Below are positions 10,478 through 16,576 of a stretch of 40,935 bases of DNA, piece by piece. Position 1 is the first letter of the stretch, and every line of letters starts with the position of its first letter. Below the pieces are notes generated by a model. The model had not been told where the DNA came from and ran no database searches. It saw nothing but the letters and a program-made list of their open reading frames with translations. Position numbers and translations under genes: made by a program. Source of the stretch: Chrysochromulina tobinii (lineage: Eukaryota); contig JWZX01001827.1 of NCBI GenBank assembly GCA_001275005.1, forward strand, positions 1-40,935. The letters run 5' to 3'.

Positions 10478-10717
10478 CTGGCCACGTGGCTGGCCTTATC
10501 GGCGCACGGTCAACCACCGTCACTCGAACGGTCTCTGTCCACAGGCAGTAACGGCAGGGCGGGCAGCGGCACGTGTTCAGCACGCAGGCCGTGGAGCGCA
10601 ATCTCATGTGAAGTTCATGGGTCTCGCCGCACTGTAGTCCACGGTAGTACCGTTTACGTGTTGTTTGTATTCATATGAAGTTCGAGACGGGATTTTCCAA
10701 GGAACTTCGCGTGGAAT

Positions 10718-11827
10718 ATGCCGACCGCCCTCGCAATCACCTTCACGATCAGCGCGCTGCTGCACGGCAAGGCCTCTAATAGCCGTTTGACTGATGCGCC
10801 TATGCGGAGTATTGCGGCTGTCCGCCGCGCCCACGTGGCCGCAGTCGTCATGGCCGCACTGGACCGTACCTTTGTCTCGGAAGTCTACGACCGCATCTCG
10901 CCGTCAGTGGCACTCATCATGCCACGAGGCGTGCGCAACACGAGCGCACAAGGAAGCGGCTTCGTCGTCGCCGTCAACGGCACCCGCTACATTCTGACGA
11001 GCGCTCACGTAGCGGCCGGCGGCATGACCGTCGAGGTAGCTTTTCCTGCCGATGGTTTCACCAAGCGGCACAACGCATCGGTCGTCGGCCGCGCACCCGG
11101 CGGCGAGGACCTCGCCTTACTTGCGCTGAACGACGCCAAGGTCGTCGAGAGCCTGGCTCCTCTTGATTTCGGCGATTCGGGATCGTTGCGCCCTGGTTGC
11201 TTCGTGATTGCTTTGGGCCATCCTTCGGGCATCAGGGGCGCTGTGACTCTGGGCGTGCTCTCTGGCCGCATGGAGCTGCCCTCGTTTGGCTCCGCAACTG
11301 GCTCGGCGGAGCAGGACGGCGGCGAGAATGATGACGACGACGCCGCCGCAGGCACCAAGAAGACGCCCTTCCTCGTGACCGACGCTGCCCTTGCCGGTGG
11401 CATGTCGGGCGGCCCTCTGTGCGGTGACGATGGGCGTGTGTATGGCGTCAACACCCTTGTCGACGGTCGGCTGCGCGGGCTGGGCAACCTGGCGATCAGC
11501 AGCGATCGTGCGCGCGAGGTGGTCCTCGCCATCGCCGCGCAAAAGGAGGTTGAGTCCCAGTCCCGAGCCATCAGGCTACTCCTCTTCAACGACCGTTTCA
11601 ATTCGCGTGCTCGCGTTCTAGGCGTGTTGCAGGAGTCTGGGTTGAGCGAGGAGGAGGCGAACGCCGCGATGATGGGCGCGCACACGAGCGGCCGAGGCGT
11701 CGTGCGTGTCTTCGGCAGAGCCGCGGATGGCACGCCCTTGACCGATGAGACCCTCGAGGCGGCCGAAAAGCTCCGTGCTGATCTGGCGGCGCGAGATCTG
11801 CTCGTGGAGCTCGAGCGCGTGTACTGA
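10718..11827 (+). CDS. Deg/HtrA-like trypsin serine protease fused to a C-terminal ClpS-like domain
   Basis: GSGFVV, ILTSAHV (His), EDLALL (Asp), TDAALAGGMSGGPL (Ser), VIALGHPSG, GVNT. C-terminal IRLLLFNDRFNSRARVLGVL...LSEEEANAAMMGAHTSGRGVV...AEKLRADLAARDLLVELE matches the ClpS pattern. Hydrophobic N-terminus. Confidence 0.88.
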   Translation: MPTALAITFTISALLHGKASNSRLTDAPMRSIAAVRRAHVAAVVMAALDRTFVSEVYDRISPSVALIMPRGVRNTSAQGSGFVVAVNGTRYILTSAHVAAGGMTVEVAFPADGFTKRHNASVVGRAPGGEDLALLALNDAKVVESLAPLDFGDSGSLRPGCFVIALGHPSGIRGAVTLGVLSGRMELPSFGSATGSAEQDGGENDDDDAAAGTKKTPFLVTDAALAGGMSGGPLCGDDGRVYGVNTLVDGRLRGLGNLAISSDRAREVVLAIAAQKEVESQSRAIRLLLFNDRFNSRARVLGVLQESGLSEEEANAAMMGAHTSGRGVVRVFGRAADGTPLTDETLEAAEKLRADLAARDLLVELERVY

Positions 11828-12209
11828 GAGACGCGAAGCTGCCGCGTGGATCTCGAGCGCGTGTACCGCCTGTGAGCTGCGGAGTACGCTGCTCGAGTTA
11901 CGGTTTCCAGCGCGTCGTCCTCGTGTACGGTTTCCAGCGCGTCGTCCTCGTGTGAGAGCGCCTTCTGCGTCTTGGTCTTGAAGCTCACGAGTGAACCGCG
12001 CTCCCGTCTCCTGAACTGAGACGAGACTTAGCTATGCACGTATAGACGGAGAGAGACCGGTGCTGCTTTACTCGCGGGGCATGTGTGGGTACTGGGTACC
12101 ACTGCACACAGTCACACACTGGTCTTTCCTCACACCGCCGTCTGCTTCGGATCAGGTTTCTAACAATCTAAGCGCGGAGACGTCATAGACGAGATATAAA
12201 CAGAAAGCC

Positions 12210-12239
12210 TAGGTGAGGAATCCGCGGATTCCTCACCTA
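12210..12239. repeat. Perfect 30-bp palindrome
   Basis: TAGGTGAGGAATCCG|CGGATTCCTCACCTA. Confidence 0.95.
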
Positions 12240-12714
12240 CGCGGCGCGCGTTTCGAAACGTTCGACGTGTATGAAGAATGTGGGGAATCGGCTGATTGTA
12301 TTCGATCCCGCAATGATTTGAACCGAATTGTCAATTGGCACGTCCTGCTCGAAGCGCGCAGGGCATTCATCAGGAGTAAAAGCACAGAGTTACATTCAAC
12401 ATTGATCTTTTAACTTTTATGAAGCTGAATTTGCCAGGTGGAGGGTCGGCCGGTCGGGCTAGGCCGGGTCCCGAGACCCGACCCGGATGGTTCGGTTCGG
12501 TTACCATTGGCCATGACTCGGAACGCCTCCATGATAAATATCATGAACGTGGATCAACAAAACTAGGTCCACCAGAACATACATCATCCAGCCACCAAGT
12601 TGTGTAGTTGACCAGTGGGTCCATCAACCTTCACCTTGAAGGAGTGGGGCTCTAACCTGGCTTCTCTCAGCTAGTGCTAGATCCCAGTCTTAGACCTCGT
12701 GTTACCTCGTGTCT

Positions 12715-12965
12715 TCTCGTGTCGAGGTCTGTCGAGGTCTGTCGAGCTGTCGAGCTGAGTGTCGAGCTTGACACTTGACAGGCCGGCACATGGAGTCAGA
12801 GGGGTTTCTGTCGAGTAGCTGTCAAGGTCTGTCGAGGTCTGTCGAGTAGCTGTCGAGCTATCAAGAGCTATCCTGTCGAGTAGCTGAAGCTGTCGTAGTG
12901 TCGAGTAGCCTGTCGTGTGTCGACGGTTCAATCGAGTTCCTGTCGACGGTTTCCTGTCGAGTTGT
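12715..12965. repeat. TGTCGAG-rich degenerate minisatellite, possible transposon subterminal repeats
   Basis: More than 15 copies of (C)TGTCGA(G)/TGTCAAG variants spaced about 8-13 nt apart in intergenic DNA. Confidence 0.8.
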
Positions 12966-13204: not shown

Positions 13205-16200
13205 CTACTCCCCCTCTCCCCTCGGTGAGCCCGGCGTGAGGGGCCGTGCATCGCCCAAGGGACCCAGTCCCAGTCCCTTGGCATCGCCACGTGACACGGG
13301 CCGTGATAACCGACTCGAGCCGACTCGAGACACGGGCCGAGGAGACACGCTGCCCGCCGGCTGCCCGCCGCGAGACACGGGCCTGCCCGACAAGTCTCCG
13401 CCGCGAGACACGGGCCGTGATGTGAGGAGCTGCCCCGCGCCGCTCCTCGCGGGCGCAGGCTCCTCCTCGGGTGGCAGTGAGTCGTCCACCTCGAGAATCG
13501 TCACCTCGTGCATCTTCTTGATGACCGTACGCGGCTCCTTGAGCTTCTCCTGAAAATCTACGATGGTGGCGTTGAGCTCGTTGAGCACTTGTATGTTGGG
13601 CATCGGCCGAAGCGTATCGTGGACGCCGGCGGCGCGCTGCACGTCCTTGAGAGGCCGCAGCTCGAGCGAGGCTTCTGGGTCTTTGCCCGATTCCCTCAGC
13701 CGCTGCTGCAGTACCTGACATGCTGCGTCCGCTTTCGTGAACTTATCCGCGAGCACGGCCGCCTCAGCCTTCTTCTTCTCGTGGGCCGCCTGCAACAGCT
13801 CGTGCTGAGCCCGCAACAGCGCTTGTTGCTCCTCAGCCGTGGTCGCCGCCTGCTTGGCCTCCAGCGCCTGCTCGCGCGTGAGGGTGAGGCTGCGCTCGTT
13901 CCGCTCCGCCGCGCTGTTCAGCTCCGCCAGCTGCTCTTGCAGCTTCGTGAGCTCTACCGCCTGCTCATTGCTTAGCGTCTCCTTACCCGCCAGCCTTTCC
14001 CGCAGCTTGGACGAGTCCTGCTCAAGCCGCTTGACCTTGAGCTCGAGCTCAGGGATCAATCTGCCCTTTTGCTCGCAGTTTTCCTGCACGTCGCGCAGGT
14101 CCTTGCGAAGCTGATCATTCTTGAGCTGCTCGCGCTTAATGTCGTTCGCTGCGCTCGCCTGCTCGCCCTGTAGCTTCTTCAGGCGTTGGTGCAGCTCCTC
14201 GGACTCCTCCTTCGCCTTGAGGGTCATCTGCTGCTGTGCTGAGAGCTCGCGCTGCGCCTCGCCAAGCTGCTCGCGGATGCCGGCAATCTTCTCCTCGTTC
14301 GGCGCAGCGGCGACGATAGCCTCGTCGAGCGCCTTTTGTAACCGCTCGTTCTCAGCCTGCAGTCGGATCACCTCTGCCTTGCGTACCTTGTGCACCTTCG
14401 GGTTGCTCGTCTCGGCAGTCAGCGGCTCGGCATCGTCCTCGGCGCCCTCCTCAAGGCCCTGCAACTTGGCGCCCAGCTCGCTCACGTGCGTAAGCAGCTC
14501 AGCGTTCCGGTCATGCAGCGCCTTGGCCTCCTCTCGCGTCTTGGACAGGTCATCGCGGGCGACCGCGAGCGCGTCGTCGTGCGCCGTCTGCTTGCCGAGC
14601 GCCTCTTTTTTGAACGCCTCGAAGGCACTCTTGGTCTCTTGCAGCTGCTTCTCGAGCTCGCTCGCACTGCTCTTTACGTTGTTGAACTCGATCTTCTTCA
14701 GCTCGATCTGCTGCGTGAGCCCCGCCTTGGTGACCGCAAGCTGCTCCTGGTGAGCTTCCTCGAGCCTCTTGGCCATCATCTCTTTCATGCGCTTCAGGTA
14801 CTCTTCGAGCGGCTGGTCCTGCTCGCCCGCGGGCGCGGCCCTCTGAAAATCGTGCAGCGCGACCATTACGTCGTTCGTCACCTGCTGCTTGAACACGTAA
14901 CGCGACAGTATGGAGTTGACCACCTGGTTCTCGGCGAAGCTGCTGATCTCCATGCCACTCACTGGGCACACGGGCGGCACGCCCTTGGCATTCGCTTCGC
15001 TCACGAGCTCATCGAGCGTTCCGCGTGAGTACGTGACGCCGCTCGGAGAGACGACCACAGGATTGACGAACAGCTTGGTCGTCTGTGGGTCCGTCAGGTC
15101 GATCTGCAGCGCTTCGTCGATGAAGAGCGCGAAGGCGATGGTATTCTTCATTAGACCGAGCTGCACCTTCATGTCAGTCTCGCGCTTCAGAATCTCGCCC
15201 TGGATCTGGCTCGCAAAGTTCGCCATCTTGGCCGTGTGCCCTTGCAACGCGGAGAGCGAACCTTCCATCTCGGTCACCTCCCGCTGCTTGCGCACCACCT
15301 CCTCATCATAGGCCGTCTTTGCGCTCACCAGCCGCTTTTGCATCGCGAGCAGGTCGGCGCGCTTGCGCTCGAGCTGGTGCTTGAGCCCGTCAATCACCGC
15401 CTCCATCTCCCTTCGATTCGTCTCCTGCTGCCGCTGTCGCTCGGCCTCCTCCTCTGCTGCCTTGGCGTTACGCGCTTTGAGCGCCTCGATCTCCTTGAGC
15501 AGTTCCTCGATGCGAACGTCGCGCTTCCTGATCTCCTGGCGTAGGCGCTCGCCCTCCTTGTCAACGTCCGCGATCACACCGTGCATCCTCTCGACCTCCG
15601 CCTTCATGTCCTCATTCTCCTGCTCGAGGGCGCGCATGCGCGCCTCCGCGGCCTCGATGGCCGCAAGCCGCGACGCCAGCCCTGCCATCTTCGCCTTGAA
15701 GCGCTCGTCCAGGCCCTGAACGTCCTTCTGATGGGCCAACGCGAGCTTGGCCACCTCCTTCTTCATTACCTCGTACTGCTTCTTGACCTGATCCTCGAAG
15801 AGTCGGTTCAACTGCCTCGTTCGTTCGAGCACCGCCGCCTCCACCTGCGAGCGCTGCGATCCACCGAGCGACTGGGCGACTGTCGGGTCCATCGGAGGCA
15901 GACTGTTGACGCCCGCGGGCCCCGGCGGCTGGTACGAGGCGAGCGGCAGCCCGGCGGCGTTCTCGACGCCCGGATGCGACGCTATGAGCGACTGCCGAAA
16001 CTGCTCCTCGGTGGATAAGAGTGCTTCCGAGCCCTCGGCCGTACGGACCGGCAGCTGGTCCCGGCCCACGTCGGCGTACACATCGCGGCGCGTCTTCCTG
16101 ATCGCTTCCTCGGACGGAGCGTCATGGCTGGCGAGCACGAGAAGCTGCGACGTGCGCCGCGCTGCACGAGCTAGTGCCACGCGCCCGCCTTCGGCGCGCG

Positions 16201-16576
16201 GCGCCATGGCGGTGGTCCGCCTCGAGCTCATCGAGGACCCCATGCGAGGCACGCCTGGCGGGCTGGGCTCAATGGCAGGTGCGCCGCCTGGTGCGGTCAG
16301 CGGCGGCAGCGGCAGCGGCGGCAAGATTTCAGGAAAGTTTCCCAGCGCAGCTCGCTGCTGCTCCGCGGTGCGCTGGGCGTTCTCGCGCTCCGCCTGCCGC
16401 AGGTCTGCCTCCGCAGCAGCCAGGATGGCGGCCGGAGTCTCGTGGGCGTTCAGCCGTCGCACCTCCTCCTGTGCAGGTGCGAGTGCTGCGGCAGTCACGC
16501 GCGGTGATGCCGCTGGCGTGTACGCTCTGCTGGAGGGCCTTGCCACCTCCGGCAGCATCGGGTCTAGCATCGGCAT
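13205..16576 (-). CDS. Long coiled-coil protein with central U-box domain (putative E3 ligase)
   Basis: About 1120 aa ORF; LTDPQTTKLFVNPVVVSPSGVTYSRGTLDELV...CPVSGMEISSFAENQVVNSILSRY fits the U-box pattern; heptad-rich flanks; C-terminal RPVSR repeats. Confidence 0.82.
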   Translation of the reverse strand: MPMLDPMLPEVARPSSRAYTPAASPRVTAAALAPAQEEVRRLNAHETPAAILAAAEADLRQAERENAQRTAEQQRAALGNFPEILPPLPLPPLTAPGGAPAIEPSPPGVPRMGSSMSSRRTTAMAPRAEGGRVALARAARRTSQLLVLASHDAPSEEAIRKTRRDVYADVGRDQLPVRTAEGSEALLSTEEQFRQSLIASHPGVENAAGLPLASYQPPGPAGVNSLPPMDPTVAQSLGGSQRSQVEAAVLERTRQLNRLFEDQVKKQYEVMKKEVAKLALAHQKDVQGLDERFKAKMAGLASRLAAIEAAEARMRALEQENEDMKAEVERMHGVIADVDKEGERLRQEIRKRDVRIEELLKEIEALKARNAKAAEEEAERQRQQETNRREMEAVIDGLKHQLERKRADLLAMQKRLVSAKTAYDEEVVRKQREVTEMEGSLSALQGHTAKMANFASQIQGEILKRETDMKVQLGLMKNTIAFALFIDEALQIDLTDPQTTKLFVNPVVVSPSGVTYSRGTLDELVSEANAKGVPPVCPVSGMEISSFAENQVVNSILSRYVFKQQVTNDVMVALHDFQRAAPAGEQDQPLEEYLKRMKEMMAKRLEEAHQEQLAVTKAGLTQQIELKKIEFNNVKSSASELEKQLQETKSAFEAFKKEALGKQTAHDDALAVARDDLSKTREEAKALHDRNAELLTHVSELGAKLQGLEEGAEDDAEPLTAETSNPKVHKVRKAEVIRLQAENERLQKALDEAIVAAAPNEEKIAGIREQLGEAQRELSAQQQMTLKAKEESEELHQRLKKLQGEQASAANDIKREQLKNDQLRKDLRDVQENCEQKGRLIPELELKVKRLEQDSSKLRERLAGKETLSNEQAVELTKLQEQLAELNSAAERNERSLTLTREQALEAKQAATTAEEQQALLRAQHELLQAAHEKKKAEAAVLADKFTKADAACQVLQQRLRESGKDPEASLELRPLKDVQRAAGVHDTLRPMPNIQVLNELNATIVDFQEKLKEPRTVIKKMHEVTILEVDDSLPPEEEPAPARSGAGQLLTSRPVSRGGDLSGRPVSRGGQPAGSVSPRPVSRVGSSRLSRPVSRGDAKGLGLGPLGDARPLTPGSPRGEGE

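Follow-up and report, generated by a model that had tools for sequence, protein, structure and literature searches.

The window analysed here is a 40,935-nucleotide stretch of DNA from Chrysochromulina tobinii (contig JWZX01001827.1). The gene of interest lies on its forward strand between a Myb gene on one side and, on the other, a coiled-coil gene in the opposite orientation. As the first-pass annotation had described, it is a single intronless open reading frame, and its product combines a Deg/HtrA-type protease with a C-terminal ClpS domain. Its features, with the evidence for each assignment, are listed below; conservation is given over 97 family representatives, whose selection is described further on.

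10718..11827, + strand: Deg/HtrA-type protease-ClpS fusion gene (single ATG-to-TGA frame, 369 aa; RNA contigs collinear)
10718..10852, + strand: likely bipartite presequence, aa 1-45 (home-made heuristic, low pLDDT)
10859..11545, + strand: trypsin-fold S1C (Deg/HtrA-type) protease domain, aa 48-276 (Pfam PF13365, structure alignment, PDB sequence match)
11006..11008, + strand: catalytic His97 (H in 86/97, gap in 8)
11108..11110, + strand: catalytic Asp131 (D in 96/97)
11291..11350, + strand: acidic insert of sensor loop L3, predicted to be disordered, aa 192-211 (pLDDT below 50)
11405..11407, + strand: catalytic Ser230 in the family motif A-G-G-M-S-G-G-P, where the HtrA consensus is N-x-G-N-S-G-G (S in 94/97)
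11462..11494, + strand: family-specific motif, aa 249-259, consensus R-P-D/E-L-R-A-L-G-N-Y-A (R253 69/97, G256 90/97, N257 80/97)
11564..11824, + strand: ClpS core domain, aa 283-369, at the site of PDZ in HtrA proteases (profile, PDB matches, predicted fold)
11588..11617, + strand: pocket loop N291-V300 (mapped on E. coli ClpS and AtClpS1; conservation over the 97)
11681..11683, + strand: pocket His322, equivalent to E. coli His66 (H in 89/97)

The stretch is present in 19 runs, 14 of which are on record as RNA. Transcripts that split the two domains, a point flagged for checking in the first-pass annotation, were not seen. One contig from a polyA library (11022-11967) covers the catalytic Asp and Ser, the linker, the entire ClpS domain and the stop codon; contigs from two other runs also bridge the junction between protease and ClpS; and RNA-library contigs of four runs have no joint over 10500-12100, with DNA carry-over possible in such contigs. 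At 27 of 28 related metagenome loci the catalytic Ser motif and ClpS share one frame with no stop between them; two of the loci are the window itself or almost identical to it, and the 28th match stops at the edge of the DNA. On the strength of the bridging RNA contigs and the shared frame, a chimera of gene model or assembly was rejected.

Several repeats lie at and beyond the 3' end of the gene. Within 11803-11866 and 11899-11952, a 22-nt repeat (95%) of the gene's final codons lies 42 bases downstream, with two exact tandem copies of 27 nt after it; 17 and 5 bases of this region are missing from one RNA contig. At 12207-12271 and 12710-12962, in a lower-GC intergenic stretch, are an 18-nt near-perfect inverted repeat with directly adjoining arms, another palindrome and a series of repeats based on TGTCGAG, which are possibly the remnant of a transposon. 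The coiled-coil ORF (13205-16576, reverse strand) encodes 1123 aa and has a weak U-box match (E 0.064) that falls below the cut-off.

The protease domain is of the Deg/HtrA type, peptidase family S1C, a label that the JGI annotation also gives. The HMMER comparison proposed for this half placed Trypsin_2 at residues 79-244 (E 2e-21), NCBIfam HtrA and ClpS profiles matched below threshold only, and the best PDB sequence match of the protease is cyanobacterial HhoA. An AlphaFold2 prediction for the full-length protein (pLDDT 82, pTM 0.76) aligns over residues 41-276 with Deg1, DegQ and DegP at Z 26-27. An ESM Atlas search with the mature protein returned generic bacterial trypsin clusters and with the ClpS part gave no usable match. 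The complete trypsin-type triad claimed earlier is intact, with the His97, Asp131 and Ser230 codons beginning at 11006, 11108 and 11405, the last within GMSGGPL, and its residues are conserved across the 97 representatives.

As far as sequence and models can tell, the protein thus shares with the Deg/HtrA proteases (plant Deg1, cyanobacterial HhoA, E. coli DegP, DegQ and DegS, and human HtrA1 and HtrA2) the trypsin fold, the His-Asp-Ser triad and an ATP-independent design with a C-terminal peptide-binding domain. It differs from them in having ClpS in place of PDZ and GMSGG in place of GNSGG, and in the loss, in most members, of the L3 Arg, the LD aromatic residue and the L1 Asn. The usual arrangement of Deg/HtrA proteins is a protease domain followed by one or more PDZ domains (PMC3194040). 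No PDZ family was found here by Pfam at E values up to 1, and ClpS follows the protease and occupies the C-terminus up to the stop, so the proposed substitution of ClpS for PDZ was upheld.

In HtrA proteases activation passes from PDZ or substrate to L3, then to LD, then to L1/L2 (PMC11252331), and full activity requires trimers (PMC9445180; PMC3194040). The loop residues of the fusion were compared at the sequence level with those of 41 non-fused HtrA proteins from the same searches. The L3 Arg is present in 9/97 fused representatives versus 35/41 non-fused proteins and the L1 Asn in 2/97 versus 40/41, while LD position 170 is mostly Ala, Ser or Gly in the former and Phe, Leu or Tyr in 34/41 of the latter. 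The residue before the catalytic Ser is Met (M229) in 88/97 members of the family and Asn in 38/41 of the comparison set. In the alignment with HtrA2, the N-terminal Phe is matched by Phe52 and the LD Phe, Phe256 (PMC6172425), by Ser170. Since the relay-loop residues have been replaced, some other switch is likely to operate in the fusion.

Other parts of the protease are conserved specifically within the family, namely V-R-N at 72-74, Arg125 and residues 249-259. The last of these motifs is not conserved among the 41 non-fused HtrA proteins and is a candidate contact for ClpS or for a partner. L3 is mostly 8-64 aa long (78 scored of the 97 representatives), and because its length varies so widely the acidic insert is probably dispensable. 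The idea that an acidic L3 is an obligatory partner of a basic ClpS rim was rejected, as L3 measures just 8-14 aa and is little charged in several members. The sequence GNSGG or GSSGG is retained in basal fused members, as would be expected if the family arose from a Deg protease.

A search across algae for the same architecture, as had been suggested, recovered haptophyte, diatom and cryptophyte members. In the first search Trypsin_2 and ClpS occurred together in 46 of the best 120 of 458 matches, with PDZ in none of the 46. Searches with profiles built from the family itself enlarged the set to 567 proteins, 280 of which combine a complete protease with a ClpS domain behind it; these reduce to 97 representatives below 70% identity. 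Named haptophyte members are from Diacronema lutheri and Emiliania huxleyi (two partial gene models; the relative P0023 is whole), and named diatom members are from Cyclotella (two species), Stephanodiscus, Seminavis, Synedropsis and Attheya. The model from the cryptophyte Baffinella is truncated, and Ditylum and Amphora yielded protease-only fragments. Every named member comes from an alga with a red-derived complex plastid.

An unrooted FastTree phylogeny of 144 protease domains places 103 fused rows on one side of a branch with support 91, which is below the mark of 95, and a fused core of 96 rows has support 99. The protein of the window sits in a group of 28 rows with Emiliania and Diacronema sequences, a placement that together with a GC content of 65% points to a haptophyte as the likely host. 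Beside it, in this haptophyte-like group and far from other diatoms, nests the diatom-labelled P0006 (Stephanodiscus triporus, KAL3761909.1; 69% identity to the window's protein) with P0004, P0005, P0007, P0009 and P0010. This placement reflects either gene transfer from haptophyte to diatom or contamination of that assembly; a locus scan for P0009 found none. P0061 and P0443, each on short contigs, end in what is nearly the P0004-type ClpS tail behind unrelated N-terminal regions, ParA-like bacterial or other, and are probably assembly chimeras. A prokaryotic origin of the fusion was considered and not found. A scan of 185,579 GTDB genomes with one 9-residue pattern, which basal GNSGG or GSSGG members would escape and which is therefore weak, gave 65 stretches and no relatives, and plasmid tblastn with a family fragment gave no match.

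Both the triad and the pocket Asn-Asp-His are intact in 74/97 representatives. The protease is kept and the pocket changed in 12/97, the pocket is kept and the triad broken in 4/97, both are changed in 1/97, and the remaining 6/97 are fragments that have the pocket and lack the His region only. Four rows without the pocket Asn, Asp and His form one diatom-type clade (support 100), and the five rows with a broken triad cluster together with a single intact one (support 99). The existence of subclades without pocket or without triad indicates that each half can persist alone and that coupling is not obligatory; the halves can be uncoupled, yet most lineages keep both. The broken-triad proteins (P0235, P0240, P0251, P0260 and P0271) form a pseudo-protease-ClpS clade in which four have an intact ClpS pocket, and they could possibly be adaptors or regulatory subunits. 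The diatom-type clade with an intact triad and a degenerate pocket comprises P0051, P0193, P0205, P0215, P0187 and loci L084-L092, and its full-length members have long Gly/Pro/Met-rich low-complexity N-terminal regions. Three members (P0226, P0241 and P0245) and the relative P0316 place a Lon N-terminal substrate-binding domain together with protease and ClpS, and P0316 additionally has a PA domain.

The assignment of the C-terminal domain to ClpS has held up by both profile and fold. Pfam ClpS (PF02617) matches residues 283-334 at 28.7 bits against a cut-off of 23 (E 1.2e-6; 8.7e-8 when the domain is searched alone), while the domain falls below the NCBIfam ClpS cut-offs. A PDB sequence search with the C-terminal 90 aa gave ten matches, every one a ClpS protein and the best AtClpS1 (7d34). 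These 90 residues, modelled separately (pLDDT 90), show ClpS topology and are closest to 7d34 both by Foldseek (E 1.7e-6, TM 0.75) and by VIA-align (Z 12.4, rmsd 2.1, 77 residues aligned), followed in the structure alignment by four more ClpS chains and then Ubr1. The C-terminal sequence stretches quoted in the first-pass annotation were all found, with the His322 codon at 11681. Many IMG/VR viral contigs carry bacterial-type ClpS homologues (69 loci in all, including L007-L070), some of which may be host DNA on proviral flanks. A phage and bacterial ClpS control set fetched with E. coli motifs was circular and was left out of the evidence.

Residues of the N-degron pocket are among the best-conserved positions of the ClpS domain across the 97 representatives. 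Asn291, Asp292 and His322, equivalent to E. coli Asn34, Asp35 and His66, are conserved in 87, 90 and 89 of the 97, N295 in 91, and the lining residues L289, V300 and M318 (E. coli Leu32, Val43 and Met62) in 91, 91 and 93. The gatekeeper, position 297, is Arg in 60 and Lys in 31 representatives (Arg/Lys in 91/97), and it is Arg both here and in AtClpS1. AtClpS1, with its Arg gatekeeper, binds hydrophobic N-termini, namely Phe, Trp and, more weakly, Leu (PMC7966870). The fusion shares with this plastid ClpS1 and with apicoplast ClpS (4o2x) the fold, the Asn-Asp-x-x-Asn loop, the Arg gatekeeper and the His. It differs from them in lying behind a protease, in having no free N-terminal extension and in carrying extra basic residues at the positions of E. 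coli Asp36 and Phe42. At the first of these, position 293, Arg (39) and Pro (36) are the most common residues among the 97, with Arg in the window's protein and Asn in AtClpS1; at the second, position 299, Arg is found in 77/97 and is an added basic residue here too. The claim of a ClpS1-like pocket is supported, with one correction at the Asp36 site. The charge of the pocket loop averages +1.75 over the 84 members with an intact pocket, compared with 0 for AtClpS1 (from the alignment) and -3 for E. coli ClpS, so that by sequence the rim is more basic than that of any characterised ClpS aligned in the comparison.

The presequence has a moderate hydrophobic stretch at aa 5-14, followed by an Arg/Ala/Ser-rich, acid-poor part that ends in Met45. 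Met is frequent at position -1 of diatom stromal cleavage sites (PMC3774753). Among the 97 representatives, 66 have a Met start and at least 30 residues before the core, and the heuristic finds a hydrophobic N-terminal stretch in 52 of these. An [ASGT]F motif follows the hydrophobic stretch in 43/52, a number reached in none of 1000 shuffles (mean 26.9, maximum 37), and in diatoms and cryptophytes a motif of this type is the mark of import into the stroma (PMC4329603). The transit-like segments of the family are acid-poor, with 2.8% Asp+Glu versus 10.6% in the core. The Ala-Phe motif (Phe at +1) is absent from the presequence of the window's protein and from those of several of its nearest relatives. 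The earlier proposal of bipartite plastid targeting is accordingly well supported for the family and only plausible, hence partly sustained, for this protein. Targeting to the thylakoid lumen by the Tat route, which an RR at aa 36-37 might have indicated, was discarded because on inspection the relatives lack an RR followed by a long hydrophobic stretch.

The best explanation of these observations, to which we assign about an even chance, is that the protein is a stromal Deg/HtrA-ClpS protease whose ClpS pocket would bind free N-termini, take the place of PDZ and probably switch the protease on without ATP. After likely import into the plastid stroma, the pocket would capture free, probably hydrophobic N-termini and hold the bound chains beside the active site, where the protease would probably be activated in cis. 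ClpS would thus do for N-termini what PDZ does for C-termini, that is, tether and probably activate. Conservation of the pocket Asn, Asp and His, together with the closest predicted fold being that of AtClpS1 with a bound peptide, was counted in favour of N-terminal reading. A possible route for allostery in the fusion is suggested by analogy with M. smegmatis ClpS, in which N-degron binding orders the pocket loop and changes affinity for a partner about 30-fold (10.1101/2024.06.12.598358). With no unfoldase, the enzyme would be expected to clip peptides and unfolded or unstructured N-terminal regions in a limited way, not to degrade folded proteins processively, and so it would act on accessible chains and not replace ClpC-ClpP.

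The basic rim and the loss of Asp36 were counted against simple N-degron reading. The rim of M. smegmatis ClpS is acidic and is thought to attract the amino terminus (10.1101/2024.06.12.598358). It is possible, if somewhat unlikely, that ClpS has instead been repurposed as a regulatory or scaffolding module that lies against the protease or recognises a specific partner, or else a motif that is acidic or phosphorylated, with classical N-degron reading playing a minor part. Besides the altered rim, this would fit the clade that lacks the pocket residues and retains the rest of the ClpS domain, as well as conserved acidic residues near the C-terminal strand (D360 in 84/97, E364 in 86/97) that could be considered together with the family-specific, conserved Arg residues of the protease (R73 81/97, R125 89/97, R253 69/97). 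Covariation between the domains gave no clear signal (2 of the top 50 pairs) in an alignment too shallow to expect one. The pocket Asn, Asp and His, however, are kept in 84/97 representatives across haptophytes and diatoms, which is more than a purely structural role should require. For the main reading, the basic rim suggests that an N-terminus reader of this type prefers other residues after position 1 than bacterial ClpS does.

Another arrangement, in which ClpS attaches to plastid ClpC, and substrates trimmed by the protease or N-degrons exposed by it are handed on to ClpC-ClpP, is distinctly unlikely. In its favour, E. coli ClpS substrates are made by the cuts of unknown upstream proteases (PMC7966870), and upstream cutting in plastids is named as an unsolved question (PMC11371169); the Lon N-terminal domain of P0226, P0241 and P0245 and the pseudo-protease members with an intact pocket, which could act as adaptors, would also suit it. 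The ClpA/C-docking acids are each kept in about half of the members (47/97 and 51/97), the position of E. coli Lys84 is hydrophobic and never Lys among the 97, and AtClpS1 too departs from E. coli ClpS at this face, so the fusion might still bind ClpC. The face is far less conserved than the pocket. Delivery to ClpA requires a free N-terminal extension of ClpS (PMC9663308). In the model the ClpS core is preceded by a linker helix (aa 262-281) and the folded protease, leaving no free unstructured extension to thread into the pore of an unfoldase. The lost extension and the weakly conserved ClpA/C face together favour action in cis. That this member is located outside the stroma (in the ER, the periplastid compartment or along the secretory route), or is an unregulated peptidase for which ClpS no longer matters, is very unlikely, since its merely moderate hydrophobic stretch, the missing Phe at +1 and the replaced HtrA regulatory residues are set against the family-wide Ala-Phe motif, the acid-poor transit-like segments, a ClpS of the plastid ClpS1 type and a strongly conserved pocket.

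If the protein is a stromal protease that reads N-termini, one class of substrate may be proposed. In diatoms the first residue of a transit peptide has to be Phe, with Tyr, Trp or Leu in some cases (PMC3774753), and these are the four residues that ClpS binds (10.1101/2024.06.12.598358). Because the residue exposed after signal-peptide removal falls within the ClpS degron set, and the named members all come from algae with red-derived complex plastids, the fusion could recognise and eliminate stromal transit peptides after their release, or precursors left unprocessed, and so tie import quality control to the N-end rule. We regard this extension as unlikely, and the net positive charge of transit peptides (PMC3774753), taken with the basic pocket rim, was counted against it.

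Both domains are well known, and the fusion is a variant within the Deg/HtrA kind. A search for an existing characterisation of the architecture found no published description of a protease-ClpS fusion in a literature that was mostly open-access and represented by main texts and largely by titles and abstracts; the available portion of PMC8889267 makes no mention of it. Automatic JGI annotation already gives some members both domain names.

Two known systems help to place the family. The E. coli ClpS-ClpAP system has the same recognition fold and pocket-lining positions, but there the adaptor is separate from an ATP-driven unfoldase-protease, whereas the fusion joins recognin and peptidase in one chain that has no ATPase. 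The E3 ligases UBR1 and UBR2 likewise contain a ClpS-like domain inside a larger enzyme (7mey, Z 8.8), one that reads hydrophobic N-termini (PMC11371169). They tag proteins with ubiquitin in the cytosol, whereas the fusion would cut its substrates directly in the plastid.

PDZ domains read C-termini, and the fusion can be described as the exchange of such a reader for a domain of the type that reads N-termini. In the literature cited here N-degron pathways lead to an ATP-driven machine, either ClpA/C-ClpP or the proteasome, and a protease equipped with an N-recognin of its own would depart from that design. Which N-degrons plastids use in vivo, and which proteases generate them, are listed as unsolved problems (PMC11371169). 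As a single chain, the protein lends itself to direct expression and assay, and among its natural relatives are variants in which the pocket or the active site is dead. The hosts, diatoms and haptophytes, are major primary producers, and N-degron-gated cleavage, if proven, would constitute a new kind of N-degron pathway.
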